IMG/VR virus record: IMGVR_UViG_2531839455_000003
Reading direction: 5' to 3' (one strand)
DNA: 38,174 nt
Source of the DNA: a virus
Lineage: Duplodnaviria; Heunggongvirae; Uroviricota; Caudoviricetes
In this document: in pieces, positions 1,513 to 27,458 of the stretch
How positions within the stretch are numbered: the stretch's first letter is position 1
Layout: every line of letters starts with the position of its first letter
Notes under the pieces: generated by a model
What the model was told of the DNA's origin: nothing
Database searches by the model: none
What the model saw: only the letters and a program-made list of their open reading frames with translations
Translations under genes and position numbers: made by a program

Positions 1513-1924
1513 CATGTCTGTGAGATAGGGTGCCTTATCGACCTTACCCTGGCAACCGATTGACGGGGGATTGCTCCCCCGTCGCGGTTTCCTTACTGCT
1601 TACACTGTAAGAACGCCGCAAACTCCGCTCCCCAGAAGCTCATCCGTATTTCACACAGCGAACCGTGCAGCATCCAGATTATGAGGATTACCGTCACGCA
1701 GAACGTGATGGCCGTAAGCGATTTTTGCGACATAGCGCTTGCTCCTTTGTTGGAGAGGCGCTAACCTATCACTTGCTTAAGGTAGATATGTTAGGGCCTC
1801 GGTTAAACAGAGATGTTTTCCGGGGCCTTTCCACATCCGGCCTTCGGGTATTCCCTCCGACCATCAGCCGAAAGGCACCCGCGCGTAATCTATCGCTTTT
1901 TTGTTACTCCGGCAATTCTGCCTG

Positions 1925-2185
1925 TTAATTCTGAGATAAAGGCAAACTCATCTGATTGTTTCCCCTGTGTGAAGCTGGCAACTCATGCCACGGGATACCT
2001 TCTGAAGAGTGAACGCCGGGGGCGTGTTTCGATGTGAATTTATGGAAAGCTTCCAGTGTTGAGAAACTTATGCCGCATTCCAGGTTGTTACACTGGTAAT
2101 ATTTTTTCCGTACGGTGTTTGAATCATTTTCCGAACGACTGGTGCGGATACGGGCAGATGCGCCACAAAGCGGACAACGGAACAT
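1925..2185 (-). CDS. ogr: Ogr/Delta-family zinc-finger late-gene transcriptional activator
   Basis: 86-aa ORF MFRCPLCGAS...YYQCNNLECG with CxxC-X22-CxxxxC cysteine spacing; SD AGGGAGG 5 nt upstream; sits next to D as in P2. Confidence 0.88.
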   Translation of the reverse strand: MFRCPLCGASARIRTSRSENDSNTVRKKYYQCNNLECGISFSTLEAFHKFTSKHAPGVHSSEGIPWHELPASHRGNNQMSLPLSQN

Positions 2186-2227
2186 AGCGACCTCCCTTAA
2201 CGTGGTGCTGCCGCTATTCTAAGTTGC

Positions 2228-3337
2228 TCACTCTGTTTCTGCTATCCATTCCGGGATTTTTGCTTCAAGCTCAAGCTGCGTGGTAAAGCCGCTGTTATCA
2301 ATGGTGTGCTCGGCTTTTACAATGATCCAGTCCTGATTATCAATCTCGCTTTTAAATCCTGTTACCGTACCATGCATTTCGGGGTAGAGTTCTGCACGTC
2401 CACGCGCCAGCGTGATGGAGAATGATGCGGCTCCGCGTTGTAGTTGCTGCCACTTTGCCGCCGCTGCGCGTCTTGCTGCCTGTTCGTTCTGATAGGTCTT
2501 GCGTAACACAAACACATTGCCTTCCGCGCCTTCCATATAATCTCCTTCACGGCTGCTGCTTTTCTCCTTTTGGGGTTTTGGTGGTTTGCGGCGTTTCACG
2601 CTGACTTTTTTCTTTTTCCCGTAATTAAGATCAAGCCAGTAGGCGCGTACCCCCGTATACGCCTCGCGGTCAGCAATACGGAACTGATGGCGATCGCCGC
2701 TGCTGCGTGTAATGGCGAACGAGGGCAACGGCTGGCCCTGTGCGTTCACGCCACCACCTGGCATGATGAATAACAGATTACCGCTTTTTACCGTGGTGAT
2801 TGCGCCCAGCATTTCCGCCATGCGCGTAAGGAAGGACATGTCGCTTTCTTCGGTCTGGTCGGCGTGGTCGATTTCGATATCCATCAGCATTTCGCTGATT
2901 TGCGGTTTCAGACCATACCGATGAGCGATGGCGGATACCACACGCTCAACGGTCACATCATGCCAGGACACCTCACGTTTAACGTTAAATTCATCCCGAA
3001 AATCTGCGCTTCTGGCTGAAACAGTCAGCCTGTCCGGCGGTCCTTCGTGAGCGATTTCATCAACAATGTAAGTGCCTTTTTCTGTCAGCGGTTCTCCCTT
3101 CCAGCCAATGAGAACCGTCAGGCGCGCGCCCCGTGGCGGTAGCTGCAACTGACCATCCGCATCATCCAGCGTGATGGTGAGCTGGTCCGCCTCAAATCCC
3201 CGGTTGTCGGTCAGTGACAGGCTCATCAGGCGCTCTGCCACGCCTGACAGCGTTTTACCCTCCGCGAGAATATCAAAATCCGGCATTTTCACGGGGTCTG
3301 TGCTCTGACTGAGCAATTGCATGGTGGTGTCGGTCAT
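2228..3337 (-). CDS. D: tail protein gpD (late control gene D family)
   Basis: Start trimmed to ATG at 3337 (MTDTTMQLLSQ..., SD GGGAGGGAA); the longer ORF to 3469 has no SD. Matches the P2 D protein family by memory. Confidence 0.88.
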   Translation of the reverse strand: MTDTTMQLLSQSTDPVKMPDFDILAEGKTLSGVAERLMSLSLTDNRGFEADQLTITLDDADGQLQLPPRGARLTVLIGWKGEPLTEKGTYIVDEIAHEGPPDRLTVSARSADFRDEFNVKREVSWHDVTVERVVSAIAHRYGLKPQISEMLMDIEIDHADQTEESDMSFLTRMAEMLGAITTVKSGNLLFIMPGGGVNAQGQPLPSFAITRSSGDRHQFRIADREAYTGVRAYWLDLNYGKKKKVSVKRRKPPKPQKEKSSSREGDYMEGAEGNVFVLRKTYQNEQAARRAAAAKWQQLQRGAASFSITLARGRAELYPEMHGTVTGFKSEIDNQDWIIVKAEHTIDNSGFTTQLELEAKIPEWIAETE

Positions 3338-3494
3338 CTGTTCCCTCCCTGTGCGGCATGGTCGCATGTGCGTGCGGAGGGGGTTACTGCTTTTTGTTGT
3401 CGCTGGGTCGGGAGAACGGCGCAGGGGTGAGATTACGCGCGTGGTGGGTGATGATTGTTGCCGAATCATTTAACGGATACAAGGGGCTGAAGCT

Positions 3495-4679
3495 ATGAGT
3501 GAAACTCGTTTTCATGGTGCCCGTGTTACGGAAAATACCGACCTGGTAACAGCGATTAACGATGTTGATTCCAGCGTTATCGGTATCGTGGCAACGGCGG
3601 ATGATGCGGACGCGAAGCTGTTCCCGCTGAATAAGCCCACACTGCTGACCCGCGTCAATGACGTGCTGGGAAAATGCGGGACAACGGGGACGCTTTATCG
3701 TGCGCTTAAGGCCATCGCAGACCAGGTGAGCACAAAGGTGATCGTCGTTCGCGTGGCTGAACACAAAGAAGAAGACGGAAAGACGCAGGATCAACTGGTT
3801 ATCGGTGGTTCTGAGGATGACGGCAGCTATACGGGGATGTATGCGCTGCTTGTTGCAGAGCAGGATGAAAGCATCGGATACCGTCCGCGTATTCTGGCCG
3901 CGCCGGAGCTGGACACGGAGGCTGCAACAAAATCCCTGTGCGTGATTGCAGGTAAACTGCGCGCGTTTGTGTATGCCTCATGTCACGGCTGTAACACGAT
4001 GGCTGAGGCGATTACCTACCGCCAGAAATTCAACGAACGTGAGGTGATGCTCTTATGGCCGGACTTCATCGCCTACAACCCGAAAAGTGGCAAAAACGAA
4101 ACGTTCCCCGCGCCTGCCTATGCGTGCGGCCTTCGTGCGTACATTGACCATGAGCAGGGCTGGCACAAATCGCTGTCCAACGTTCCGGTTAAAAATGTGC
4201 TGGGAATGTCCAGGCATGTGTTCTGGTCGTTGCAGGCCGAAGACAGCGATGCCAACAGCCTCAACAACAAAGAAATCACGACCATTATTCGTCGCAACGG
4301 GTTCCGCTTCTGGGGCAACCGCACACCGGAAACGAACGCCTACATCTTTGAGGTGTATACCCGAACCGCACAGGTGCTGGCTGATTCAATTGCGGAAGCG
4401 CAGTTTGAAACCATCGACAGTCCACTGACACCTGCGAACGTGAAGGATGTTATCAGCGCCATCAGGGCAAAACTGGATTCGCTGGTTACTGCCGGGAAAC
4501 TGATTGGTGCGGAGTGCTGGTATGACGTGGTGGATAACGGCACCACGAATTTACGTCAGGGACGTGTGCGTATTCGCTACAAATATACGCCTGTTCCCCC
4601 GCTGGAAGACATGGAGCTTTACCAGACGTTTACTGATGAATTCTTTGGTCCCGCATTTGCGGTGCTGGGAGGTGCCTGA
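3495..4679 (+). CDS. FI: contractile tail sheath protein gpFI
   Basis: 394 aa, the size of P2 FI; directly followed by the tube gene with overlapping stop/start (TGATG). Confidence 0.92.
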   Translation: MSETRFHGARVTENTDLVTAINDVDSSVIGIVATADDADAKLFPLNKPTLLTRVNDVLGKCGTTGTLYRALKAIADQVSTKVIVVRVAEHKEEDGKTQDQLVIGGSEDDGSYTGMYALLVAEQDESIGYRPRILAAPELDTEAATKSLCVIAGKLRAFVYASCHGCNTMAEAITYRQKFNEREVMLLWPDFIAYNPKSGKNETFPAPAYACGLRAYIDHEQGWHKSLSNVPVKNVLGMSRHVFWSLQAEDSDANSLNNKEITTIIRRNGFRFWGNRTPETNAYIFEVYTRTAQVLADSIAEAQFETIDSPLTPANVKDVISAIRAKLDSLVTAGKLIGAECWYDVVDNGTTNLRQGRVRIRYKYTPVPPLEDMELYQTFTDEFFGPAFAVLGGA

Positions 4680-5191
4680 TGGCTGTACCAAAACATCTTC
4701 GCTTTTTTACGTTGTTTGTGGATGGTGAAAACGAAGTGGGTAAAGTGACATCCGTCACGCCGCCCAAACTGACGCGCAAAACCGACAGCTATCGTGGTGG
4801 TGGCATGATGGGGGCGGTAAGTATTGATCTCGGTCTGGACGACTCCGCGCTTGATGCGAGTTTTGTCATGGGGGGAGCTGTTCGTGCGCTGTTCCTTAAA
4901 TATGGCGGCACGATTGACGGCACGCTGCTGCGTTTTGCGGGTGAATACTACACCGATGCAGAAAGCGATCTGTATGAAATCGAGATGCGCGGGCGTGTGA
5001 CGGAAATTGATATGGGGGAAGCCAAACAGGGTGAAGCCACATCACACACTTACGCTGTCAAAAACACCTACTACAAGCTGAGCGTTAACGATCGCCCGCT
5101 GTGGGAAATCGACCTGTTGAACCACATCTACCGGAAGGACGGCAAGGACATTGTGCCTGACCGTATCCGTTCCGCGCTTGGGCTTGGCTGA
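4679..5191 (+). CDS. FII: tail tube protein gpFII
   Basis: 170 aa; position and size match P2 FII. Confidence 0.92.
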   Translation: MAVPKHLRFFTLFVDGENEVGKVTSVTPPKLTRKTDSYRGGGMMGAVSIDLGLDDSALDASFVMGGAVRALFLKYGGTIDGTLLRFAGEYYTDAESDLYEIEMRGRVTEIDMGEAKQGEATSHTYAVKNTYYKLSVNDRPLWEIDLLNHIYRKDGKDIVPDRIRSALGLG

Positions 5192-5246
5192 TAAGTAATA
5201 TGCAGGCGGCGCAGTGCGTCGCCTCTGACTGAAAAGGAGACAACTG

Positions 5247-5621
5247 ATGAAAGACATCGATACTGAAACCCGGAATAACACCGTGGCGGATGATGTGACG
5301 GCAGGTGAGGATATGGCTGTCGAACGTGGCGTAAAACTGACCCGACCAATTGAGCGTGGTGGCGAAAAAATCACGTATGTGGAGATCACCGGGGCTATTG
5401 AGCAGGCTGGATCCCTGCGTGGTCTGTCGCTGTCTGATGTGCTGAATCTGAAAGCGGATACCATGTTTACGCTGTTGCCTCGCGTGACCTCGCCACGACT
5501 GGATGAAGTGATGATTAAAAAAATGTCGTCACGCGATTTTATTCAGTTGTGCGCTGTGGCTGTAAATTTTATGAGCGAGCCAGACTCTGGCGCGAAGAGC
5601 GTGCAGGAGACGGCAGCGTAA
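5247..5621 (+). CDS. E: tail assembly chaperone gpE (zero-frame product)
   Basis: 124-aa ORF with strong SD AAGGAGA 6 nt upstream; lies between the tube and tape-measure genes. Confidence 0.85.
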   Translation: MKDIDTETRNNTVADDVTAGEDMAVERGVKLTRPIERGGEKITYVEITGAIEQAGSLRGLSLSDVLNLKADTMFTLLPRVTSPRLDEVMIKKMSSRDFIQLCAVAVNFMSEPDSGAKSVQETAA

Positions 5622-5785
5622 TCACCCTGGTGTGCTTTGAGCACATCGAAGATCTGGTGGCGGATATTGCCGCCATTTTTAACTGGTCGCCCGCCGAAAT
5701 CTTCATGATGACGCCCGGCGAAGTGGTTAGCTGGCGCGAGCGGGCGGCACTTCGCAGCGGGAATGCAGATAATGAAGACTCTTGA
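5247..5785 (+). CDS. E': gpE+E' fusion made by a programmed -1 ribosomal frameshift (shift at about 5517-5523)
   Basis: The -1 frame opens right after a TAA at 5516-5518 and runs to 5785, overlapping the T start. A7 run at 5517-5523 is the candidate slippery site. Same arrangement as P2 E/E' and lambda G/GT. Confidence 0.6.
5517..5523 (+). other. candidate slippery heptamer AAAAAAA for the E/E' -1 frameshift
   Basis: Zero-frame codons AAA AAA (Lys-Lys) at 5517-5522; re-pairing of tRNA-Lys one base back gives the E' frame. Confidence 0.5.
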
Positions 5786-8579
5786 TATCCGGGTCGCTTT
5801 CAGCGCCGTTGACAGGCTGACCCGGCCTGCCGAAAACGCCCGCCGCCTGATGGGGCAGTTTGGTGACTCCATCCAGCGAACGCAGGGGGCGATCAAAAAT
5901 CTCGAGCGTCAGGCGCGTTCATTTGAGCGCGCCCGTGACGCTGTCAGTAAAGCGGATGCTGGCATCGTGAAAGCACGACGCCAGCTTAACGCCCTTAATC
6001 AGTTACAACGCACGGGTACAGTGCTCAGCGAAAAACAACAAAAGCTGATGCAGCAGTTAAGCACCCGGCTTGAACGCCTGAATGAATCGCGCACACGGGA
6101 AATTCAGAAAATGCGGGAGCTTGGCGGAGAGCTGAAACGCCACGGCATTTCCCTGACAGGCAGCGATAACACCATCCAGCAGGCCATCAGACGCACCGAA
6201 CAGTACAACAACCAGCTTGAACGCGAACGGCAGGCGCTTGCGCGTGTAACGCGGGCGCGTGAGCGGTATTCGCGCGCGCAGGAAACAGCGGGAAAACTGA
6301 AAACAGGTGGTGCGCTGGCAATTGGTGCGGCAGCGGCGGGCGGCTATGCTGCCGGGCGTTTTTTGCAGCCTGCGATCGGGTTCGGCAAAGAGATGTCCCG
6401 CGTTCAGGCACTGACGCGAATCGACCAGAACAGCCCGCAGTTTAAGGCGCTGCGTGAGCAGGCGTTAAAACTTGGCTCTGAAACGCAGTTCACCGCAGGC
6501 GATGCCGCCAGTGGACAGGCATTTCTTGCAATGGCTGGCTTCACTCCGCAGGCCATTCAGGCTGCGCTTCCCGGCGTGCTGAGCATGGCAACGGCTGGCG
6601 GTATGGATCTCGGCGAGACGGCAGATATTGGCTCAAATATCCTGACGCAGTTCGGCCTTTCTGCTGACCAGATGGACCGGGTCGGTGACACACTCACCGC
6701 AGCGTTTACCCGTACCAACACTGACCTTCGCGCACTGGGCGAAACCATGAAATATGCAGGTCCGGTGGCGGGTAAGCTGGGAATATCGCTGGAGCAGGCC
6801 GCAGCGATGGCTGGCGTGCTGGCGAATATGGGCATCAGAGGGAGTGATGCCGGGACGGCAATGCGTGCCAGCCTGGCTCGTCTGGCATCACCGCCAAAGG
6901 CGGCGGCAGAAGCTCTGAAAGAGCTGGGCGTGTCCGTCTCGGATGCCGGGGGCAAAATGCGCCCGATGGAGGATGTGCTGGCCGACCTTTATAAAGCCAC
7001 CCGCAAATACGGGGAAGTTGACCGGGTATCGTTCTTTAAGGACATTGCCGGAGAAGAGGCTTTCACATCGTTTATGGCGCTCGTTGATGCAGCGGGTGAC
7101 GGTTCCTTACCCAAACTGAGAAAAGAACTTGAAGGCGCGCGCGGTGAGGCTGAACGCACAGCAAAGGTTATGGCCAACAACCTTGACGGCGATCTGAAAT
7201 CACTCGGCAGTGCATGGGAAGGGGTGCGCATCCGCATTGCAGATCTGATTGACGGTCCGCTGCGTTCTGTCACGCAGTGGCTCACGCGGGTGGTCTCAAA
7301 AGTGACGGCACTGGCGCAGGCCCATCCGGCACTGACGCGCCAGTTACTGATAGCGGGAGGTGCACTGCTGGCGACAACAGCAACGGTTGGTTCGTTGTCT
7401 CTGGTTATTGGGGTGCTTCACGGGAAGCTGGCTACGTTACGTCTCGGTTTTTCTCTCCTGACCGGATCAATGAATGCTGTCAGGATCCTGCCAGCACTAT
7501 GGGGAATGGTGACGGGTTCCGTTTCTTTACTGGGAGGCGCTATCGGGGCGCTGATCAGTCCGGTTGGTCTTATCGTGGCTGCGCTTGCCGGAGCTGCCGT
7601 TCTTATCTGGAAATACTGGGATCCCATCAGGGCATTTTTTGCCGGGGTGTTCAGCGGGATTATGGAAAGGCTGACCCCGTTGCGCGAAACCTTTGAACGG
7701 TTTGGTCCTGTTTTTGACGCAATCGGAAGCGGGATCAGCCAGGTGTTTAACTGGTTTAAATCGCTGCTGTCACCGATGGAGTCCAGCAAGGAAACGCTGG
7801 ATAAATGTACCAGTGCTGGCGAGATATTCGGTAACGTTCTTGGCGGTGCGTTACAGCTTGTTCTGACACCTGCAAAAATGCTACTGGATACGCTGGCGTG
7901 GATACTTGAAAAACTTGGCGTCCTTCCGGATGAAGCGGAAAAGGCGCGCAAGAAAATCGAAGACGCACAGCGTGCGGCCATTCTTCAGGACAAGGTTGCC
8001 TTGCTTCAGGGGGACCTTGCGAAAATCAATCCGCCGAAGCCTGTGGAAAATGGCAATGGCACCGGAGGTGATAAACCCAAAGACAACAAACCGCTCACAG
8101 ACAGCAATACCGGGACGCTACGCAGACTCAGCAAAATTGCTGATAACACAGGTAAGCTGGTTGATGAGACGAAAAAACGCATTGGCCCTGGCGATATTGT
8201 CTTTAAGAACCTGCCCCGCGCACTTGCTGTTCGTGGGGAGTGGCAGGAGCGGAAGATTGCGCAGGTCAGTAAGCCTGCCCCCGCAATTAATATCACACCC
8301 GTAGTCCCGGCTCCGCTGCCTCCGGCGCTGGTCCCTGTTGTTGCGGCCAGCTCCCGCCCGGTGGCGGAGGCCATACGATCGCCAGTGGCATCAGTTCCTG
8401 CAGCTTCCCGTAATCGGGAGCCTGCTGTCTCCAGATTTGGCGGTGAAATTCATGTTCATCTGCATAACGTTGTTACGCAGAATCCCCGCGAACTGGCGAA
8501 ACTGGTCGGTGAAATGGTCAGGGCAGAGATGGAACGGCGCGCCCGTGCCGGACGTGGCAGTTTTTACGATAAAGATTGA
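5763..8579 (+). CDS. T: tail tape-measure protein gpT
   Basis: 938 aa, coiled-coil-rich N-terminus, hydrophobic Gly/Ala-rich middle; follows E/E'. Confidence 0.92.
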   Translation: MQIMKTLDIRVAFSAVDRLTRPAENARRLMGQFGDSIQRTQGAIKNLERQARSFERARDAVSKADAGIVKARRQLNALNQLQRTGTVLSEKQQKLMQQLSTRLERLNESRTREIQKMRELGGELKRHGISLTGSDNTIQQAIRRTEQYNNQLERERQALARVTRARERYSRAQETAGKLKTGGALAIGAAAAGGYAAGRFLQPAIGFGKEMSRVQALTRIDQNSPQFKALREQALKLGSETQFTAGDAASGQAFLAMAGFTPQAIQAALPGVLSMATAGGMDLGETADIGSNILTQFGLSADQMDRVGDTLTAAFTRTNTDLRALGETMKYAGPVAGKLGISLEQAAAMAGVLANMGIRGSDAGTAMRASLARLASPPKAAAEALKELGVSVSDAGGKMRPMEDVLADLYKATRKYGEVDRVSFFKDIAGEEAFTSFMALVDAAGDGSLPKLRKELEGARGEAERTAKVMANNLDGDLKSLGSAWEGVRIRIADLIDGPLRSVTQWLTRVVSKVTALAQAHPALTRQLLIAGGALLATTATVGSLSLVIGVLHGKLATLRLGFSLLTGSMNAVRILPALWGMVTGSVSLLGGAIGALISPVGLIVAALAGAAVLIWKYWDPIRAFFAGVFSGIMERLTPLRETFERFGPVFDAIGSGISQVFNWFKSLLSPMESSKETLDKCTSAGEIFGNVLGGALQLVLTPAKMLLDTLAWILEKLGVLPDEAEKARKKIEDAQRAAILQDKVALLQGDLAKINPPKPVENGNGTGGDKPKDNKPLTDSNTGTLRRLSKIADNTGKLVDETKKRIGPGDIVFKNLPRALAVRGEWQERKIAQVSKPAPAINITPVVPAPLPPALVPVVAASSRPVAEAIRSPVASVPAASRNREPAVSRFGGEIHVHLHNVVTQNPRELAKLVGEMVRAEMERRARAGRGSFYDKD

Positions 8580-8591
8580 GGAGTCATGGTC

Positions 8592-9080
8592 ATGATGATG
8601 ATCTACGGCATGTTTGTTTTTGAGCTGCGCACACTGCCGCATCAGCAGTTACAGCAAAACAAAAGCTGGCGGCATGTGAAAAATGAACGCGTTAACCGTT
8701 CAGCAAGCTGGCAGTATATAGGTGCAGGTGATGATCGCATTGTGCTTTCCGGCATGCTTTATCCTGAAATTACAGGTGGTGAAGTGTCGCTTTCGTTGCT
8801 GACCACGCAGGCATATACAGGACGCCCCTGGCCTCTGATTGATGGTGTCGGGCAGATTTACGGCATGTATGTGCTGACTGAAACGAATACGACCCGTTCC
8901 GAGTTTGATCGCTACGGTAAGGCGAAAAAGATAGAATTTTCACTGACCCTTGAACGCTGTGATGAGGATTTGCGGGAGCGCCTGCAATCCTCATCATTCA
9001 GCGATATGCTGTCCGGCTTCAAAGATAAGGTGACATCATCTCTTAACAGCGCGGCCAGTTCAGTTAAAGGGCTGTTCTGA
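8592..9080 (+). CDS. U: tail protein gpU
   Basis: MMMIYGMFVFELRTLP... resembles the P2 U N-terminus (MMVLGLFVF); SD GAGGAG 8 nt upstream of ATG 8592; the ORF could also start at 8586. Confidence 0.86.
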   Translation: MMMIYGMFVFELRTLPHQQLQQNKSWRHVKNERVNRSASWQYIGAGDDRIVLSGMLYPEITGGEVSLSLLTTQAYTGRPWPLIDGVGQIYGMYVLTETNTTRSEFDRYGKAKKIEFSLTLERCDEDLRERLQSSSFSDMLSGFKDKVTSSLNSAASSVKGLF

Positions 9081-9091
9081 TTTAACACAAA

Positions 9092-9117
9092 AACCGCTAA
9101 TGGCCAGATTAGCGGTT
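9092..9117. terminator. bidirectional terminator hairpin between convergent U and invertase genes
   Basis: AACCGCTAAT-GGCCAG-ATTAGCGGTT, perfect 10-bp stem, T-rich downstream (ATTTTGTTTTCTG), A-rich upstream; overlaps the invertase stop codon. Confidence 0.6.
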
Positions 9118-9702
9118 ATTTTGTTTTCTGACTCTTCTCTATTGTTCCACTTGATTCTCCTGCGGGGTGGTAACGATAAATCGTCGATGTACCAATGCCG
9201 TAAATTATTGCCAGTTGTTTTCTGTCGTGACCGTTTTTAATCAGCCTTGCTATTTGCTCATGCTGTTCTTTTGTCAGCTTCGGTCGACGTCCGCCTGTGC
9301 GCCCCCGTGCGCGCGCTGCCGCCAGTCCGGCCAGTGTACGTTCAACAATTAATTCACGTTCCATTTCAGCCAGGGCACCCATCACGTGGAAGAAAAAACG
9401 CCCCATTGGAGAAGATGTATCTATGCTGTCGGTCAGACTGCGAAAATTAATCCCTCGCTCCCGTAGTTCCCCGACGAGAGAAATCAGATGTTTCATGCTT
9501 CGCCCGAGGCGATCCAGTTTCCAGACAACCAGCGTGTCACCTTTTGAAGACGCTTTAAAGCGCGTTTTAATCCCGGTCGGTCTGTCTTTGTCCCGCTTAA
9601 TTTATCTTCAAATATTTGTTCACATCCTGCACAAACAAGAGCGTTTCGTTGCAGGTCTGTATTCTGGTCATTTGTTGATACCCTGACATAGCCAATCAGC
9701 AT
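9116..9702 (-). pseudogene. pin: Pin/Gin/Hin-family serine DNA invertase, disrupted by a 1-nt frameshift
   Basis: N-terminal ORF MLIGYVRVSTNDQNTDLQRNALVCAGCEQIFEDKLSGT...LKRLQK (catalytic Ser motif) and C-terminal ORF MKHLISLVGELRERGINFRSLTDSIDTSSPMGRFFFHVMGALAEMEREL are in different frames. Reading AAG-GTG-ACA-CGC as AAG-G-GT-GAC-ACG restores ...KGDTLVVWKLDRLGRSMKHL, so one G is missing from a G run at about plus 9540. Confidence 0.85.
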
Positions 9703-9756
9703 TCTGAATCTCCCGTCCAAAAGCGCAAATCATGCCATGCAGGCCGGAAACGGCCA

Positions 9757-9782
9757 TTATCTAAAACCTCGGTTTACAGGAA
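9757..9782. other. gix/pix-like 26-bp inversion crossover site (right)
   Basis: TTATCTAAAACCTCGGTTTACAGGAA; one mismatch from the Mu gixL sequence as I recall it; lies beside the invertase 5' end. Confidence 0.8.
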
Positions 9783-10727
9783 ACGGTAAATCAGGCTTCT
9801 GGCGCATTACAGAAAAACCAGAACGGCGCAGATATTCCGGGAAAAGATACCTTCACCAAAAATATTGGGGCCTGCCGCGCATATAGCGCATGGCTGGATA
9901 TTGGTGGCGATAGTCAGGTCTGGACAACCGCGCAATTTATTTCGTGGCTGGAGAGTCAGGGAGCATTTAACCATCCTTACTGGATGTGCAAAGGCTCATG
10001 GGCTTATGCAAATAATAAGGTCATTACAGATACAGGTTGCGGAAATATTTGTCTTGCAGGTGCTGTGGTGGAAGTTATTGGCACTCGCGGCGCAATGACC
10101 ATACGCGTTACTACGCCGAGCACGTCCAGCGGTGGCGGAATTACTAACGCTCAATTCACTTATATTAATCATGGTGATGCTTATGCTCCTGGCTGGCGAC
10201 GAGACTACAACACGAAAAACCAGCAGCCTGCATTTGCTTTAGGGCAAACAGGAAGCAGGGTTGCAAATGATAAAGCTGTTGGCTGGAACTGGAATAGCGG
10301 TGTTTATGATGCAGATATCAGCGGTGCATCGACATTAATCCTCCACTTCAATATGAATGCGGGGAGTTGCCCTGCCGTACAGTTCCGTGTGAATTATAAG
10401 AACGGCGGTATTTTTTATCGTTCAGCACGTGATGGTTATGGATTTGAGGCTAACTGGTCAGAGTTTTACACCACAACCCGCAAACCCTCTGCGGGAGATG
10501 TTGGTGCATATACGCAGGCAGAATGTAACTCAAGGTTTATTACAGGTATTCGCCTTGGCGGTCTGTCATCTGTTCAGACATGGAATGGCCCCGGCTGGTC
10601 TGACAGGTCAGGTTATGTCGTTACGGGTTCAGTTAACGGAAACCGTGATGAATTAATTGATACAACTCAGGCAAGGCCAATTCAGTATTGCATTAATGGG
10701 ACGTGGTATAACGCGGGGAGTATTTAA
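9765..10727 (+). CDS. alternative tail-fibre C-terminal variable segment, promoterless and start-less; fused to the constant H N-terminus only after inversion
   Basis: Frame is open from inside the gix site ([15 protein letters not shown]...) to stop at 10725-10727. Shares the site-encoded LGLQETVN and the C-terminal INGTWYN motif with H. Confidence 0.75.
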   Translation, partial: NLGLQETVNQASGALQKNQNGADIPGKDTFTKNIGACRAYSAWLDIGGDSQVWTTAQFISWLESQGAFNHPYWMCKGSWAYANNKVITDTGCGNICLAGAVVEVIGTRGAMTIRVTTPSTSSGGGITNAQFTYINHGDAYAPGWRRDYNTKNQQPAFALGQTGSRVANDKAVGWNWNSGVYDADISGASTLILHFNMNAGSCPAVQFRVNYKNGGIFYRSARDGYGFEANWSEFYTTTRKPSAGDVGAYTQAECNSRFITGIRLGGLSSVQTWNGPGWSDRSGYVVTGSVNGNRDELIDTTQARPIQYCINGTWYNAGSI

Positions 10728-10729
10728 CG

Positions 10730-11263
10730 ATGATGCACTTAAAAAACATTACTGCTGGCAACCCTAAAACAAAAGAGCAATACCAGCTAACAAAGCAATT
10801 TAACATCAAATGGCTTTATTCAGATGATGGAAAAAACTGGTATGAGGAACAAAAGAATTTCCAGCCAGACACTTTGAAAATGGTCTATGGCCATAACGGC
10901 GTTATTATTTGTATTGAAAAGGATGTTTCAGCAATTAATCCGGAAGGCGCAAGCGTCGTTGAATTACCTGATATTACAGCAAATCGCCGTGCTGACATTT
11001 CGGGTAAATGGATGTTCAAAGATGGCGTAGTGGTAAAGCGAACTTATACCGAGGAAGAGCAGAGGCAGCAGGCGGAAAATGAAAAGCAAAGCCTGCTACA
11101 GCTCGTCAGGGATAAAACCCAGCTATGGGACTCACAGCTACGGCTGGGCATCATTTCCGACGAGAATAAACAAAAATTAACAGAGTGGATGTTCTTTGCG
11201 CAGAAAGTCGAATCTACAGACACTTCCAGCCTGCCAGTAACGTTTCCCGAACAACCTGAATGA
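10730..11263 (+). CDS. tail-fibre assembly protein (alternative copy, Tfa/gpG-like)
   Basis: 177 aa; N-terminus MMHLKNITAGNPKTKEQYQLTK... parallels the other tfa copy; follows the alternative fibre segment. Confidence 0.85.
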   Translation: MMHLKNITAGNPKTKEQYQLTKQFNIKWLYSDDGKNWYEEQKNFQPDTLKMVYGHNGVIICIEKDVSAINPEGASVVELPDITANRRADISGKWMFKDGVVVKRTYTEEEQRQQAENEKQSLLQLVRDKTQLWDSQLRLGIISDENKQKLTEWMFFAQKVESTDTSSLPVTFPEQPE

Positions 11264-11266
11264 GAC

Positions 11267-11290
11267 AAGGCCCGATAGCGGGCCTTAATT
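11267..11290. terminator. bidirectional hairpin between the convergent tfa genes
   Basis: AAGGCCCG-ATAG-CGGGCCTT followed by AATTTTTATT. Confidence 0.5.
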
Positions 11291-11291
11291 T

Positions 11292-11819
11292 TTATTCAGG
11301 CTTTTGTGGCCATTCAGGATTTGCCGTATCCACACGGTTGACCAGAACACTGTAGCGTTCCCATGACTCCAGTCGTGCGCGTTCCTCATCCGTCGCCATA
11401 TTCAGCCTGACAGCGCGTTCCAGCGGCTGGATGACTGATTCAGCTTCGGAAAGCAATGCGGCCTTTTGTGATTCGGCCTGTTGTTGCTGTTCGTCAGCCG
11501 TATAAATCCGTTTAACCACAGCTCCGTCCTTAAACATCCACTTTCCTGAATCATCAGCGCGGCGGTTGGCTGTTATATCGGGAACCTCAACGACGCTAAA
11601 ACCTTCAGGGTTAAGCGTGGAGGCATCTTTAGTGATGGCGACAATAATATTATTTGCATCGTAAACAATCTTTATTGTGTCTGGCTGAAAGTTTTTCACT
11701 TCCTCATACCAGTTTTTTCCGTCCTCAGAGTAAAGCCAGATAACTCCGTGTTTCTTTGTTAACTCATACTGTTCCAGTGTTTTAGCGTTACCCGCTTTTA
11801 TGTTCTTTAAGTGCATCAT
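11292..11819 (-). CDS. G: tail-fibre assembly protein (currently expressed copy, gpG-like)
   Basis: 175 aa, [22 protein letters not shown]...; immediately downstream of H on the same strand. Confidence 0.88.
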
Positions 11820-11820
11820 A

Positions 11821-13983
11821 TTAAACGCTCGCTACATTATACCAGGTGCCATTTATATACTTTTGAACGGGTCTGTAATAAACGCCCGCTATATTATCGG
11901 CAGAGTTGGAGCCTGTATCCTGAACATTAATACCAGACAATACATGACCTGACGGGCACTGGAAATTCCATGTTTGCCAGTTGTTCACTCCATAATATTG
12001 CTGTGAACCAAGTCGAACATCTTTCACATATCTGGAATCAAAATTGCCATAATTGCCGGGAATAACTTGCGCACCGCAAAGCCAGTTCCCGTTATTATCC
12101 ATGTACGCCTGACCATCGGTACCATTGGCTGTCCTTGAGTTATTAATCATGTAGATGCCAAATTGCTTATTTCCCAGACCGCCAATCATAAATTTTCGGT
12201 CGGCATGGTCCTGACGGAGCAAGGCCTGGGCGCTATCAGTGTTAACTATATTTTTCCCAAAGATAGCGTTGTTATCGCGCATCTGAATCCACATACCATT
12301 ACCGCTGTTAATAGCAAAACGGTCTGAAAGTGTTTCTCCTGAAACATTAAGGCCACGCCCCATCGAAACAGCGCCAGTAGCGTTATTAATCCATAATGGC
12401 CTTAATCCGTTATAAGTCCCCATGTTGTCACCGGAGTTTGTCAACATGAAGTATGTATTTGAACCATCATTACGAATAAAGAATCCGTAATTACCATAAG
12501 CAATACGTAGGCCGTTTGCTGATTTTGATATGACTTCGCCATTTACAATGGCATTGACAAGAACATACAAAGCATCCCATTTAAGATTCATCAGGTCTTT
12601 TGTTGTGGTGCTTTGTTTGCTTCTCCATTTGAAATATTCATTGCCGTTGTCGCCTGTTTCAAACCACATGTATGAATCAGTGTCACCATCGGCATCATTT
12701 TTAAATCCAATCTTTGCCCAGTCAGTATTTCGAATCCAGGCAAGGATTGAGTCATTTTCAAAAGTAAGCCCACCGGACAAGGTATCGCCATTTTTTTGCA
12801 CGGCGTTACCAGCCCTGTTTACCGTTTCCTGTAAACCGAGGTATTCGATAACAGCGGCAACGGTCGATTTCGCAAGAATATCCCGCCCGACTTCTGTCAG
12901 GGTTGCCAGACTGGCAACATCATTCCCCGTAAAATACGGAAACCTGTCTGCTGCAGTAGCAAGCCCGGCCAGCGCCGTCAGGGTGGCATCTTTCGGTTGC
13001 TTACCCGCAAGCGCGTTAGTCATGGTGGTCGCAAAATTCGGGTCGTTGCCCAGCGCCGCCGCCAGCTCGTTCAGCGTGTTCAGTGCGTCAGGTGAAGAGT
13101 CTACAAGTGCGGCAATCGCGGCCATAACGAAAGCCGTGCTTGCGATTTGGGTATTATTCGTTCCCTGTTGTGCAGTTGGTGTTGTTGGCGTTCCGGTCAG
13201 TGCCGGGCTGTTTAATGGGGCTTTCTTGTTCGTTTCATCCATTACCGCCTTAACCGCTTTTGGTGTCGCTGCCAGCGTTTCAGACGTGCTGTTGGTTGCA
13301 CTGCTGAGCTGGACTATCCCTTTTCGTGCCGTCGTGGCGTCCTGAGCGGTATATTTTCCGTTAGCCAGGTCATACGCGGCCTTAACCGCTTTCGGCGTTG
13401 CAGCCAGCGTTTCAGAATCGCTGTTAGTGGCGCTACTGAGTTGAACAAAGCCTTTTGCGGTCAGCGAGGCATCCGGGTGACGTCGTGACTGTTCATGCTC
13501 TTTCAGTTTGTCATCCACGTAATCCACTGTGGCCATCACCATGGTGTTATCCACGGTAAGCGCCACGGTGGCAGTGCTGGATACGGTCAGAATGGTGCGA
13601 AATGTTTGTGCACGTCCTGACCCTTCGGCAACGGTTGGCTTGTAACTTTCGGCAGTATTGCCTACTGCGATTAAATCGCCGTGCTCATCAAACACACCAA
13701 TTTCCCGGATCCAGAATCCGCCCGTTTCTGGAGGAATAACCAGCTCCGCAATAATGCGGTTCTGATGTGTTGCGTCCAGGATGACGCGATTAACAGTGTG
13801 TCGCCACACCTCATGCACCAGACGGGTCTGCTTACTGTCTGGTGTGGGCAACGTGCCGCCACCGTCGCCCACGGCCATATGAGTCAGGCGGACAGGCTTA
13901 CCATCTGGCGCGGCTGCCTGAGCTAATTTTTTTGCACCCGTATCGGTGATAACGGTTTTAAATTTTCGTGTTGTGGTACTCAT
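11821..13983 (-). CDS. H: tail fibre protein gpH (constant N-terminus plus current variable C-terminus)
   Basis: 720 aa; N-terminus [31 protein letters not shown] is P2 H-like; contains the left gix-like site at 12826-12851 in frame. Confidence 0.92.
12826..12851. other. gix/pix-like 26-bp inversion crossover site (left), inside H
   Basis: TTCCTGTAAACCGAGGTATTCGATAA, inverted relative to the site at 9757-9782. Confidence 0.8.
13247..13446 (-). repeat. intragenic tandem direct repeat in H (two ~68-bp copies, 132-bp period)
   Basis: Copies at 13247-13314 and 13379-13446 encode the repeated peptide [22 protein letters not shown]. Confidence 0.7.
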
Positions 13984-17429: not shown

Positions 17430-17736
17430 GGTTGTTATCCTCGTTGTTCAGTCGTTGCAGCCTGCGCTGTTCCAGTAATTCAATGGCCCGTTTATCCGCG
17501 TTACAGGTTTCCAGTGCATCCAGAAGGCGGTCGCCCCATATACCGAGATTTCCCCATGTGGGAGTATCAGGGAAGGGGGGAGGCGTTACCGGTATGGTCA
17601 GCGTCTGCGGTATAAGCCGGACTGACGGCGCTGGCCGTGGCGCGTTCTGCGTGCCTGCGCAACCTGTCAGTAAAACGAGCGTCAGGCAAAGCGTGGGCGC
17701 ATTCATCTTTTGCAATATCGTTGCGTAGCTGTTCAC
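17416..17736 (-). CDS. lysC: o-spanin (Rz1/LysC-like outer-membrane lipoprotein)
   Basis: Signal peptide with lipobox LLTGC, proline-rich mature part; starts inside the i-spanin gene in another frame. Start is GTG 17736 or ATG 17706. Confidence 0.7.
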   Translation of the reverse strand: MNSYATILQKMNAPTLCLTLVLLTGCAGTQNAPRPAPSVRLIPQTLTIPVTPPPFPDTPTWGNLGIWGDRLLDALETCNADKRAIELLEQRRLQRLNNEDNNHAEN

Positions 17737-17974
17737 GTCTGGCCTCTCCGTCCTGATTTCGCTGTTGATTTTCCACGCGGAGTTGCGCCAGCACCTGCTG
17801 CATATCCTGTACCCCGGTGCTGATGATATTCAGGGTGTCGACGGTACTTTTCAGGGCGCTGGCCTGCGCTTCGTTTCTGGCGTTCTCCCGGCCCAGCGAC
17901 CACGACAGACGCATGGATGTTCCCCATGCGGCAATCAGAATGAAAGCGACGCCTAGCGTGGGCCAGAGCTTCAT
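17567..17974 (-). CDS. lysB: i-spanin (Rz/LysB-like)
   Basis: Start trimmed to ATG 17974 (MKLWPTLGVAFILIAAWG..., N-terminal TM helix) with SD GGAG; periplasmic part looks coiled-coil. Confidence 0.7.
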   Translation of the reverse strand: MKLWPTLGVAFILIAAWGTSMRLSWSLGRENARNEAQASALKSTVDTLNIISTGVQDMQQVLAQLRVENQQRNQDGEARREQLRNDIAKDECAHALPDARFTDRLRRHAERATASAVSPAYTADADHTGNASPLP

Positions 17975-18363
17975 GTCGGATAGGCTCCGTGTGGTAACTG
18001 AAAATGCGGTCCGTCTTTCAGGGTCTTCCAGTCGCCGCCCCATTCCACCGGAATATTCAGTTCCCGGCTGGCCTGTCTGAATGCTGCTGCGATTTTTTCG
18101 TACAGCGGCCATTCCCATGACACCTGGCTGCCGATATAAGCCACAACATCCACGGCATGCCCCGTAAGGTGGCGGCTGTTCATGGTCTGGCTCTTACCCG
18201 TGGCCACCAGTTGCTTCTGGCGGTAACGGCTGCGCACCCCTTCGGTGATACCAAAATCCACTTCCGAGATTTCCAGTGCCCGTCGGGTCACTTTCACCAG
18301 ATCAGGATTTACGCCCTGCAAATTCTTTTCGCTCCGGCTGCTGAATTTAAATGTGTTGCTCAT
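17971..18363 (-). CDS. endolysin, peptidase M15 (L-Ala-D-Glu / VanY-like) family
   Basis: 130 aa with HLTGHAVDV and WGGDW...DGPHFQL motifs typical of zinc peptidase M15 endolysins; ATGA overlap with the holin stop. Confidence 0.82.
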   Translation of the reverse strand: MSNTFKFSSRSEKNLQGVNPDLVKVTRRALEISEVDFGITEGVRSRYRQKQLVATGKSQTMNSRHLTGHAVDVVAYIGSQVSWEWPLYEKIAAAFRQASRELNIPVEWGGDWKTLKDGPHFQLPHGAYPT

Positions 18364-22241: not shown

Positions 22242-22395
22242 AGTTTTTGCCCCTCTGACTGGTTCTTCAGTCATGATGGCAAAGCGTAACAGGCTGATAC
22301 AAAGGGCTTTTGTTGTAAGAAAACGGCCAGAACAGGGGGTTAAGGAGAACAGTTTCGCGCGCGGGTAATCTTCCTGTAATTACTCAGGGGGAGCA

Positions 22396-25243: not shown

Positions 25244-25617
25244 GACTCTCCAGCTCCTGTATCAGTCAGATAATTTCACGACGCTTTCCTGCTGATTGCC
25301 ATCATCGACAGTCAGACTCTTACGCAATCCCACCGCGTTGACTGCATGTTCTCGCCGTCTCAGTGCGATTTTGACGGCCTTACCTTTCACCCCATCAAAT
25401 CAAAAGCCCTCACGTCTTTTTCACGCTCAGCGTGAGAAATACAGCCATTCTGTTGTGTCGCTGCGACATCGTTCAGGGGATGCTATTTACCCCCTGAAAC
25501 GCGGGCTGTTCCCCCGTCACCTGCGCGCAGAAAAAATGCGTTTTTTTGTGCACGCACGGATCCTTGACGGATCCAGCCACCATGCGGGCCGGAAGGGCAA
25601 AAAGTCGTTCAAAAAAA

Positions 25618-25654
25618 TTGTGCAAATTTGTGCACTATTGTGCATTTGTATAGT
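25618..25654 (+). promoter_or_regulatory. three helically phased TTGTGCA direct repeats with a candidate -10 (TATAGT) upstream of the cargo operon
   Basis: TTGTGCA at 25618, 25628 and 25638 (exact 10-bp spacing); TATAGT at 25649-25654; about 70 nt upstream of ATG 25724. Confidence 0.4.
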
Positions 25655-25723
25655 GAAAAAAATATAGCAGAAAGTATACTTAGCGCCTTGTGGGCTACGT
25701 TAACTTTGCAGGAACATTTGGAA

Positions 25724-27103
25724 ATGAAAAAAATCAATAAAGAAGATTCTAAAAGAACCTTTTTACGTGGATGGTTGCGATTTCTTCGTAGCGTTGAGAG
25801 AGCTAAGAAAAAAAAGCCTGCGCAAGAGAAAAATGGTAGTCTTCGTTTTTCCGATGAAACAACTCCTGTCCAAAACCAAGTCGCTACGTTCATTGAAAAT
25901 ATATCGATTATAAAAGAGTATGACTCATCAATTCTTCGTCGTGACGCAGAGAAGATATTAATACCTAAATATTTTGACTTATATGACAATCCAGAGAAAT
26001 CTCTGCTATTTATTAGTGCAGCCACAAAATTAATTGCAAGAGGTAAATGGAAATCATATATTTTTGATTACAAGAAAAACAAAAAACACTGTCTTGGTCT
26101 TGAGTGTCTATTAGGTGTTGCTCTTACAGCAGCAAGGCAAAGTAATATAAATTTCAAAGATACGATGATTCAGATTAATGGTATCTACCCTAAAGATGAA
26201 CAGTATCTTGAAATTATCAGGGATGTCGGGCTTGTAAAAGAGATTAGTAATGCTGCACCAGGTAAAGTTCTGGACTCTACTGAAGCATCGAAAAAAGCGA
26301 ATCCGAAGAAACGAATCTTCTCTGCTGATAGTATCGGAAAGGAGAATGCTTCTGCCTTTGCCCATGACAGAAAAAATGTCACTGCTGAAAAATTTACCGC
26401 ATACATAAACGAATGCTTAAATGATCATAATTTAAAACTTGTACATGAGGCAGAAAAGCATTTAACTTCCTGCATGGGGGAACTCCTTGATAATGCGGAG
26501 CGGCATTGTGGGTTAGAGCAACGCCCACGCTGGTATTTGAGAGGTTTTGTTAATAATAACGTACGAAACCCCATATGTGAGTTGGCTGTTTTCAATTTTG
26601 GGAAAACTATCAGCGAAACTTTTGATAATTTACCTGAGGATCATTTTTCATTAAGTCAACAAGTTAATCCATACATAAATAAGCATATTAAGAAAAAGGG
26701 TATGTTTAAGGAAGGATTAACAACAGTAGCGGCCTTGCAAGGGCGGGTGAGTTGTAAAAACGAGAAAGAAACTGACAGTTCTGGCACCGGAACAATTGAA
26801 TTATTGAAGTTATTTCAAGATATGCATGATAATCTTAAAAAAATGGGAAGAGATATTAAAGGTGGGATAAAAATGACTTTAATATCTGGTAGTACTCATA
26901 TTAACTTTGATGGATCATATAAATTAAAGCAAAGGTTGGTTAATGACGAGGAAAGTGACATTTTTACTTACCCTTTTAATGATGTAGGGCTTGAATCTGA
27001 ACCGGATCGCAACTATCTTAAGCGTATGAAGGATGCTCGATTTCCTGGAGTTATGATCAATATTCGTTTTCCTCTACCAGAAAACGCCACCCAGCGAACT
27101 TGA
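25724..27103 (+). CDS. cargo gene 1: predicted GHKL/Bergerat-fold ATPase-like protein (possible Ser/His-kinase-type), function unknown
   Basis: 459 aa from the first ATG; AT-rich. N-box-like motif GELLDNAERH (E-x3-N-A-x2-H), then a degenerate G1-like FNFGKT and a G2-like SSGTGTIELL glycine loop in the C-terminal half. Confidence 0.7.
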   Translation: MKKINKEDSKRTFLRGWLRFLRSVERAKKKKPAQEKNGSLRFSDETTPVQNQVATFIENISIIKEYDSSILRRDAEKILIPKYFDLYDNPEKSLLFISAATKLIARGKWKSYIFDYKKNKKHCLGLECLLGVALTAARQSNINFKDTMIQINGIYPKDEQYLEIIRDVGLVKEISNAAPGKVLDSTEASKKANPKKRIFSADSIGKENASAFAHDRKNVTAEKFTAYINECLNDHNLKLVHEAEKHLTSCMGELLDNAERHCGLEQRPRWYLRGFVNNNVRNPICELAVFNFGKTISETFDNLPEDHFSLSQQVNPYINKHIKKKGMFKEGLTTVAALQGRVSCKNEKETDSSGTGTIELLKLFQDMHDNLKKMGRDIKGGIKMTLISGSTHINFDGSYKLKQRLVNDEESDIFTYPFNDVGLESEPDRNYLKRMKDARFPGVMINIRFPLPENATQRT

Positions 27104-27113
27104 GGACAGGTAC

Positions 27114-27458
27114 ATGAAAATGGCTGACATCACCATAGATTTCAATAAGTTAGTAAAAGATAGTAACAAGAAACTTTTTGCTGGACGTTCTAATGGGCGC
27201 CAGGCCTATGATTACTTTAATATAGGGAAATTTTGCACAACCAGTAATGATAGATTATATCTATTGATCCCCAAGGGAATTGTTGTATCAAGCTCATACT
27301 TTCTAGGTATGCTTGAAACGGTTTTGCCGAAATTTTCTTCGCCTAGCGAATTTTATAGTCGCACTGTACTTGATGGTCGTGAATATAAAGAAGGTATGCT
27401 TTCTGAATTAGATAGAGCTGTAAGGAGAGGCTTACATAAAAATGTTCCCTTCTTTTAA
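27114..27458 (+). CDS. cargo gene 2: small cytoplasmic protein, possible STAS-like (anti-sigma-antagonist fold) partner
   Basis: 114 aa, 10 nt after the gene 1 stop (SD GGACAGG). Motif LYLLIPKGIVVSSSYFLGMLETV resembles the beta-strand plus DSSG serine loop of SpoIIAA/RsbV-type STAS domains; assigned by motif only. Confidence 0.6.
   Translation: MKMADITIDFNKLVKDSNKKLFAGRSNGRQAYDYFNIGKFCTTSNDRLYLLIPKGIVVSSSYFLGMLETVLPKFSSPSEFYSRTVLDGREYKEGMLSELDRAVRRGLHKNVPFF

Follow-up and report, generated by a model that had tools for sequence, protein, structure and literature searches.

In phage P2, the tail genes FI-FII-E/E'-T-U-D form the F operon, which is followed by ogr. In the P2-like prophage analyzed here (record IMGVR_UViG_2531839455_000003; the whole stretch of 38,174 nucleotides is called the window), the block from FI to U is read in the opposite direction to D and ogr, which raises the question of whether the block was truly inverted, whether the lineage is arranged in this way or whether the assembly is wrong, and from where D would then be transcribed. 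The flipped tail block is real, yet it is the normal and fixed layout of a large P2-related group that includes plaque-forming phages. Very probably, V to H and G on the minus strand, FI, FII, E, T and U on the plus strand, and D and ogr on the minus strand constitute the standard order of a large Enterobacterales Peduoviridae clade, derived from a single ancient inversion, with D predicted to be read from a mirrored late promoter.

All homologues of the P2 F operon (FI, FII, E, T, U, and D) were found in the window by Pfam and by tblastn against P2, with amino acid identities of 33-49%. The strands given in the original prediction were confirmed by open reading frames and Pfam matches, with G, H, I, J, W, V, S, R, the lysis genes, L, M, N, and O lying on the minus strand in addition to D and ogr (Table 1). 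A co-directional passage from U into D was not found, as D is encoded on the other strand, divergently from FI, with 157 bp between the two starts, and ogr lies 42 bp 3' of D on the same strand as D. Both predicted gap lengths hold as well, namely these 157 bp between D and FI and 35 bp between U and the invertase gene (9081-9115). The latter gap is covered by a hairpin with a folding energy of -16.1 kcal/mol (z -3.7), which reaches 10 nt into the 3' end of the invertase gene. Flipping the block on paper restores the P2 order, and the canonical relative 500465-1 indeed reads invertase-FI-FII-E-T-U-D-ogr. The start of D was set to the ATG at 3337, which is preceded by the Shine-Dalgarno sequence GGGAGGG at a distance of 6 nt. 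A longer D of 413 aa with a start at 3469, as called mechanically from the open reading frame, was discarded because its additional part is interrupted in P88 and would reach into the conserved control region; the length of the D-FI gap differs among relatives by non-multiples of 3, which speaks against the longer reading, too.

Table 1. Position and strand of the features discussed; promoter elements are predictions.
Feature	Position	Strand	Remarks
ogr, late activator gene	1925-2185	-	Pfam Ogr_Delta PF04606, 1e-15; 39% aa identity to P2 Ogr
D, baseplate hub, 369 aa	2228-3337	-	Pfam Phage_GPD; 49% identity to P2 D
D-FI divergent control region	3338-3494		157 bp with the D start at ATG 3337
Predicted D promoter -10, TG-C-GACCAT (extended -10)	3358-3367	-	Hexamer from 3363 to 3358, 43.5 nt from dyad centre
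Single Ogr-type dyad, TTGTTGT-N12-AGAAC	3394-3417		Core TGT-N12-AGA 3398-3415, centre 3406.5
Predicted FI promoter (pF) -10 hexamer, GATGAT	3450-3455	+	43.5 nt from dyad centre
FI, tail sheath	3495-4679	+	Pfam sheath domains; 45% identity to P2 FI
FII, tail tube	4679-5191	+	Pfam Phage_tube, 2e-45
E, tail assembly chaperone	5247-5621	+	Weak Pfam Phage_TAC_7 match; 35% identity to P2 E
T, tape measure protein	5763-8579	+	Pfam PhageMin_Tail, 4e-58
U, tail protein	8586-9080	+	Pfam Phage_P2_GpU, 9e-39
Bidirectional terminator hairpin, convergent U/invertase	9084-9125		Inverted repeat I22; terminator scan, both strands
Gin/Cin-type DNA invertase	9116-9702	-	Pfam Resolvase match split over two ORFs
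gix site beside invertase	9757-9782	+	Partner at 12826-12851 inside H

The window is a P88-like prophage of the P2 family (genus Xuanwuvirus) that adjoins serS. Its positions 1800-11900 are collinear with P88 in a single piece (100% coverage, 95.4% nucleotide identity) and likewise, in one piece each, with phiSM and P884B11, the P88-type relatives being 95-96% identical at the nucleotide level. P88 (Xuanwuvirus P88), Citrobacter phage phiSM and Xuanwuvirus P884B11 all show ogr-D, FI-U, the invertase and the G segment in the order and on the strands seen in the window. Over positions 12000-36900, P88 covers 79% at an identity of 96.3%; compared to P88, the window has a frameshifted invertase gene and a different cargo between Q and A, and contains a low-GC cassette that P88 does not cover. 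The ICTV guideline for a genus is a nucleotide similarity of approximately 70%, and both the genome-wide similarity to P88 and the identical gene order at the two block junctions place the window in Xuanwuvirus. P88 forms plaques with a burst size of around 65 and has a contractile tail in electron micrographs (PMC5285337), and phiSM is plaque-forming, too (PMC6456863). The synteny comparison suggested along with the original prediction thus shows an orientation common to P88, phiSM, and P884B11, and at least P88 and phiSM are close relatives with functional tails, which was the very observation named beforehand as speaking against an anomaly. Of the three options offered at that time, the lineage-specific arrangement stands, reached by way of one ancient and now fixed inversion, while an assembly error and an inversion of recent or private origin do not.

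With regards to E. coli, the D-FI junction was crossed at a query coverage of at least 80% in at least 1108 of 5426 complete genomes, and it was still crossed in a sample of the weaker matches. A P2-type junction from U to D, built synthetically from the alleles of the window, was found in none of the 1414 E. coli genomes carrying these alleles.

For the distribution beyond close relatives, phage records and GTDB loci were surveyed, with the best 80 of 433 genome loci retained, so the canonical sample is small (n=14). Among these best 80 loci and the phage records, D was at least 61% identical to the window D in all 67 inverted cases and at most 54% identical in all 14 canonical ones, and the inverted cases span four named genera and approximately 25 enterobacterial genera. 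In neighbor-joining trees of D, FI, FII, and U, inverted and canonical sequences were separated with a bootstrap support of 100/100 in each tree, which fits one old inversion, and the outgroups P2 and Burkholderia phage Mana have the canonical order. Such an inversion would have carried the FI promoter, the Ogr-binding dyad and the genes FI to U as one unit and would have detached D from the tail operon. Our literature search returned no paper on this gene order; a paper on Xenorhabdus tailocins describes inversions of tail fibres, the xenorhabdicin locus itself being canonical in gene order.

Of 62 inverted loci measured, 57 have a D-FI gap of 140-165 bp, and every inverted locus has one dyad of the form TGT-N12-A(C/G)A per gap, with ACA in many members. 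The consensus of Ogr-type sites is TGT-N12-ACA (PMC3931495). No exact copy of this consensus is present in the D-FI gap of the window, where the site was recognised after aligning relatives as TGT-N12-AGA, its right half-site having one mismatch. The extended form TTGTTGT-N12-AGAAC occurs in two exact copies in the window, compared to 0.01 expected by chance. The second copy is located in the P-O gap (154 bp) and is the only recurrence of these half-sites in the window.

The candidate -10 hexamers lie at -43.5 and +43.5 nt from the dyad centre, ungapped across the inverted clade. On the D side, TG, A2 and T6 are conserved in an ungapped, dyad-anchored alignment of 60 sequences and are the best-conserved bases there, while the -35 region is poor. 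On the FI side, a gAnnAT consensus is conserved in the inverted clade; canonical relatives show nAnnAT at the same offset, and the FI hexamer of P2 is found at +44.5. Since the aligned sequences are phylogenetically related, this conservation is partly inherited. Transcription would start near 3351 on the minus strand and 3462 on the plus strand, each approximately 55.5 nt from the dyad centre. With an activator gene in the window, a single dyad between divergent late genes and -10 elements spaced for predicted starts at around 55 nt, the region has the features of an Ogr/Delta promoter pair. The expectation that D would need its own promoter was sound, and a specific candidate is predicted in the D-FI gap. 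Judged from the sequence, a promoter of its own is probable for D: a late promoter arranged as the mirror image of the FI promoter around one shared dyad would drive D and, probably, the ogr gene that follows. The D promoter, its dependence on Ogr and the co-transcription of D and ogr are predictions. The most far-reaching interpretation, held with moderate confidence, is that one ancestral inversion put the FI promoter and its dyad-symmetric Ogr site beside D and so created a second two-way late promoter like pP/pO, that D and perhaps ogr were thereby uncoupled from sheath and tube expression, and that the layout marks a multi-genus clade of Enterobacterales Peduoviridae.

It is also conceivable, though rather unlikely, that the ancestral, fixed layout holds as described while D is driven by a separate promoter, either constitutive or differently regulated, or by an activator site of its own that escaped detection. 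The predicted D hexamer, GACCAT, shares only 3 of its 6 positions with TATAAT, and a simple sigma-70 scan gave no match in the gap. However, a generic scan is expected to miss activator-dependent promoters, and the result is hence uninformative. Furthermore, TG, A2 and T6 hold their ungapped 43.5-nt offset even where D proteins are only 61% identical, and the geometry equals that of the mapped pP/pO pair of P2.

Regarding the origin of the arrangement, the block from FI to U could have been replaced by a module of another phage lineage, inserted in the opposite direction, instead of having been inverted in place. P2-like phages are mosaic, and within the window itself H and G are 85-90% identical to P2, compared to 26-54% for the backbone, which lends this scenario some plausibility. 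Nevertheless, FI, FII, E, T, and U are 33-46% identical to P2; this is a divergence no greater than in the rest of the backbone and like that of D, V, W, J, N, P, and Q (41-54%). The D tree agrees with the FI, FII, and U trees on the fully supported split, and the promoter geometry on the FI side is that of canonical relatives. Replacement by a foreign module is therefore improbable, while an in-place inversion is not strictly separable from a re-insertion of the same module, as the breakpoints are no longer readable.

The proximity of a Gin-type invertase, whose gene ends 35 bp from U and which a flip of the block would bring to the position of the invertase in the canonical phage 500465-1, might suggest a recent or reversible switch of the FI-U block by this enzyme, a link that was implied in the original prediction but remains unsupported. 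Within the window, a search allowing up to 3 mismatches gave just two gix matches; these flank the tail-fibre G segment alone, and no third gix-like site was found within this threshold at the ends of the FI-U block. Likewise, no inverted repeats link 3338-3494 with 9081-9115, the pairs obtained being short chance matches. An invertase gene is present near U in only 9 of 64 loci of the inverted clade; phiT5282H, ST16-OXA48phi5.4, and SEN5 lack one. Moreover, alignment with the invertases of P88 and phiSM shows a deletion of 1 nt in an A5 run near 9545, by which the invertase gene of the window appears frameshifted. Without end sites and with the alternative junction absent from all 1414 genomes, the block does not have the features of a serine-invertase segment, and such a switch is highly improbable. 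Instead, the invertase and the Mu-like G segment beside U would represent a later, optional insertion unrelated to the orientation of the block.

Finally, a misassembly or scaffolding error that flipped a 5.8-kb piece in this genome, as the departure from the P2 order and the position of both junctions in intergenic DNA could suggest, is practically negligible, since both junctions recur in independently sequenced phage genomes, the D-FI junction is common in complete E. coli genomes that lack the alternative one, and neither junction contains repeats able to mislead an assembler.

These results caution against using P2 as the synteny reference for every P2-like prophage. Roughly one in five to one in four complete E. 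coli genomes has this layout; its presence in a prophage is therefore no reason to report a rearrangement or a misassembly. Rather, the orientation of FI-U versus D can serve as a marker, as it cleanly distinguishes a large clade with Xuanwuvirus, Novemvirus, Reipivirus, Senquatrovirus, and their relatives from phages of the P2, 186, and Wadgaonvirus type. In addition, the D-FI gap offers a simple, testable case in which an activator site is predicted to be reused in both directions after an inversion.

Compared to known invertible segments such as the G segment of Mu and the C segment of P1/P7, which are handled by Gin, Cin, or Hin, positions 9757-12851 of the window are a member of this type with two gix sites and 92-95% identity to Mu, D108, and P7, whereas the FI-U block has neither gix sites nor an orientation polymorphism. 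As in P2, ogr follows D. Unlike in the P2 F operon, FI-U runs against D, ogr, and the V-G operon, so that the FI transcript does not end with D. The late promoters of P2 provide the closest parallels for the control region. At P2 pF and in the window alike, an Ogr-type dyad lies approximately 73 nt before FI, with the -10 hexamer 43.5-44.5 nt from its centre. The right half-sites differ, being AGA in the D-FI gap of the window versus ACA in the consensus, and CCA at P2 pF and pP/pO; the P-O gap of the window has the same half-sites as its D-FI dyad. According to the P2 RefSeq annotation, on which the sharing of the site rests, one activator site serves both pO and pP, whose starts have been mapped to 3016 and 3127, at an equal distance of 55.5 nt from the dyad centre, and the hexamers of pO, pP, and pF are located at 43.5, 43.5, and 44.5 nt, respectively. 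P2 pP/pO thus combines one dyad in a gap of approximately 155 bp with a -10 hexamer on either side, the two being mirror images at 43.5 nt, and the same arrangement is predicted for the D-FI gap of the window.

An ORF map and Pfam scans confirmed the genes and strands of the original prediction, and its gap sizes (157 bp between D and FI, 3338-3494; 35 bp between U and the invertase, 9081-9115) were borne out as well. The tail block FI-FII-E-T-U lies on the plus strand, opposite to D and ogr, and all of G, H, I, J, W, V, S, R, the lysis genes, L, M, N and O are on the minus strand. D starts at ATG 3337, preceded by the Shine-Dalgarno sequence GGGAGGG. A longer open frame from 3469 was rejected, as the extension is broken in P88 and overlaps a region with non-multiple-of-three length variation among relatives. 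A small hypothetical ORF in the same gap (3338-3469; gp50 in P88, and a 'hypothetical protein' called by PGAP in E. coli records) is probably a spurious call: the conserved dyad and -10 elements described below fall within it, and the gap lengths vary out of frame. At the other end of the block, a bidirectional terminator hairpin (9084-9125) covers the 35-bp gap and extends 10 nt into the 3' end of the invertase.

Genes of the tail region and predicted promoter elements between D and FI
Feature	Position	Strand	Detail	Basis
ogr	1925-2185	-		ORF map, Pfam
D	2228-3337	-		ORF map, Pfam
FI	3495-4679	+		ORF map, Pfam
FII	4679-5191	+		ORF map, Pfam
E	5247-5621	+		ORF map, Pfam
T	5763-8579	+		ORF map, Pfam
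U	8586-9080	+		ORF map, Pfam
Resolvase-type (Gin-type) invertase	9116-9702	-	ends at 9116	
Dyad, predicted Ogr-type site	3398-3415		centre 3406.5; TGTCGCTGGGTCGGGAGA	alignment of relatives
Predicted FI-side -10, gAnnAT	3450-3455	+	GATGAT; starts 43.5 nt from dyad centre	
Predicted D-side -10, TG-n-nAnnAT	3367->3358	-	TG-C-GACCAT; starts 43.5 nt from dyad centre	

A misassembly, one of the options in the original prediction, or an inversion private to this prophage is contradicted by functional phages with the same orientation, the very finding that the prediction had named as its refutation. Positions 1800-11900 align with Escherichia phage P88 in a single collinear block (100% coverage, 95.4%), and also with Citrobacter phage phiSM and Xuanwuvirus P884B11, with identical annotated strands. 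P88 can be induced and forms plaques; its burst size is about 65, and EM revealed a contractile tail (PMC5285337). phiSM is likewise a plaque former (PMC6456863). P88 covers 79% of the remaining prophage at 96.3%, so that by sequence the window is a P88-like prophage and belongs to that genus; serS lies to the left of the prophage and an integrase to its right. A 1.2-kb probe across the D-FI junction was matched at ≥80% coverage in 1108 of 5426 complete E. coli genomes, and weaker matches, where sampled, also cross the junction. A synthetic P2-type U-to-D junction, made from the window's own alleles, was found in none of the 1414 E. coli genomes containing both probe halves; the block orientation is thus fixed rather than polymorphic, and the layout is neither an artefact nor a private event.

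The block shows neither of the two defining marks of an invertible segment, sites at its ends and occurrence in both orientations. The only gix sites in the window at up to 3 mismatches (9757-9782 and 12826-12851) bound a Mu-like tail-fibre segment, and no inverted repeats link the two block ends. An invertase lies near U in just 9 of 64 inverted-clade loci, and in most loci of the clade G is directly convergent on U. The invertase link implied earlier hence falls away: the enzyme has no role in block orientation. Compared with those of P88 and phiSM, the window's copy is divided between two ORFs (9493-9720 and 9116-9496) by a 1-nt deletion within an A5 run near 9545. This is either a real pseudogene, in which case the tail-fibre segment would be locked, or a homopolymer sequencing error.

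Members of the inverted clade differ in the cargo that they carry directly downstream of U (9081-9115 and equivalents): the invertase occupies this position in 619 E. coli genomes, many others diverge immediately past the U stop, and in ST16-OXA48phi5.4 a DUF262 gene is found at this point. Its similarities mark the tail-fibre module as a mosaic of recent origin. At 11292-13983 (-), G (90%) and the first ~420 residues of H (85%) stand against 26-54% for the backbone in comparison with P2, and distal H with the invertible segment is 92-95% identical in nucleotides to Mu, D108, P1 and P7. A low-GC cassette at 25296-28251 (~36% versus ~55%) with three or four plus-strand ORFs (491, 114, 269 aa) sits between the portal gene Q and the replication gene A, the old/tin cargo position of P2. 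Its ORFs had no match in Pfam, NCBIfam or PADLOC and only a weak PHROG of unknown function; we regard the cassette as a candidate for a defence or moron cassette not characterised so far.

The inverted layout recurs in phages whose D is 63-79% identical (Novemvirus phiT5282H, Reipivirus ST16-OXA48phi5.4, Senquatrovirus SEN5 and Serratia phage KSP20), while FI-U-D lies on one strand in Wadgaonvirus 500465-1 (D 54%), P2 (48-49%) and Burkholderia phage Mana (47%). For GTDB species genomes, FI, FII, E, T, U, D and ogr were mapped by tblastn in the best 80 of 433 loci. All 67 inverted loci or records have a D at least 61% identical to that of the window, and all 14 canonical ones a D at most 54% identical. 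Inverted hosts include Salmonella, Edwardsiella, Serratia, Erwinia, Pantoea, Klebsiella, Xenorhabdus, Photorhabdus, Providencia, Morganella, Yersinia and Hafnia, among others. A 226-kb contig labelled Vagococcus sp. WN89Y (NZ_JBQPOM010000071.1) also holds a P88-like prophage (D 98% identical), which suggests enterobacterial contamination or mislabelling of this Firmicute assembly. Inverted and canonical sequences separate in 100 of 100 bootstraps of the neighbour-joining tree built for each of D, FI, FII and U, and divergence from P2 is alike for the block (33-46%) and the rest of the backbone (26-54%). As the outgroups are canonical, the P2 order is ancestral. The data are most simply explained by a single old inversion that a multi-genus clade has inherited, and block orientation is a useful marker of this clade. 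The layout is already known as data, being present in public, characterised phage genomes since 2009 (KSP20); our literature search found no published comment on this gene order. The modest new point is the putative two-way reuse of a single Ogr site, along with the use of block orientation as a clade marker.

Aligned across 57 distinct relatives, the D-FI gap is poorly conserved outside a few elements, with one TGT-N12-A(C/G)A dyad in each gap. An ungapped, dyad-anchored alignment of 60 sequences yielded the two predicted -10 elements. Canonical relatives also have nAnnAT upstream of FI at +43.5 (GAAAAT at +44.5 in P2), and the dyad-to-ATG distance at FI is 70-76 nt in all, canonical relatives included; this shared geometry suggests that the FI promoter and its site moved with the block. 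TTGTTGT-N12-AGAAC occurs exactly twice in the window (0.01 expected by chance); as the motif was derived from the D-FI site, the informative part is the second exact match (22310-22333), which falls in the divergent P-O gap, the sole other expected Ogr site. A near copy, TCGTGGTCGCTGGGCCGGGAGAAC, lies at 17882-17905 (-) within a lysB-like spanin ORF (17567-18118), with two mismatches to the motif and a spacer different at one base. Since V directly follows S, with no room for a pV promoter, this site is a possible internal late promoter of R-S-V...G; no convincing -10 stands at the expected offset.

O starts at ATG 22241 (Shine-Dalgarno GAGGGG), which gives the N-terminus MANEKK... of P2 O and a 154-bp P-O gap; the hexamers of this gap lie +43.5 and -44.5 from its dyad centre. 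The longest ORF runs from ATG 22274; with 22241, the predicted pO -10 falls outside coding sequence. In the P2 RefSeq record, pO and pP share one annotated activator site, and their mapped starts (3016 and 3127) both lie 55.5 nt from the dyad centre (3071.5), with hexamers at +/-43.5. The D-FI gap has the geometry of this known two-way Ogr-dependent promoter pair, from which we infer a promoter for D. Transcription would start at about 3351 (-) for D and 3462 (+) for FI, and ogr, 42 bp past D, may be co-transcribed with D; according to its terminator annotation, the F-operon transcript of P2 likewise reads through ogr. The window has the genes of the P2 tail module, but D is not the last gene on the FI transcript, as the definition of the P2 F operon requires, and the D-FI gap repeats the geometry of pP/pO, with starts predicted at the distance from the dyad centre that is mapped in P2.
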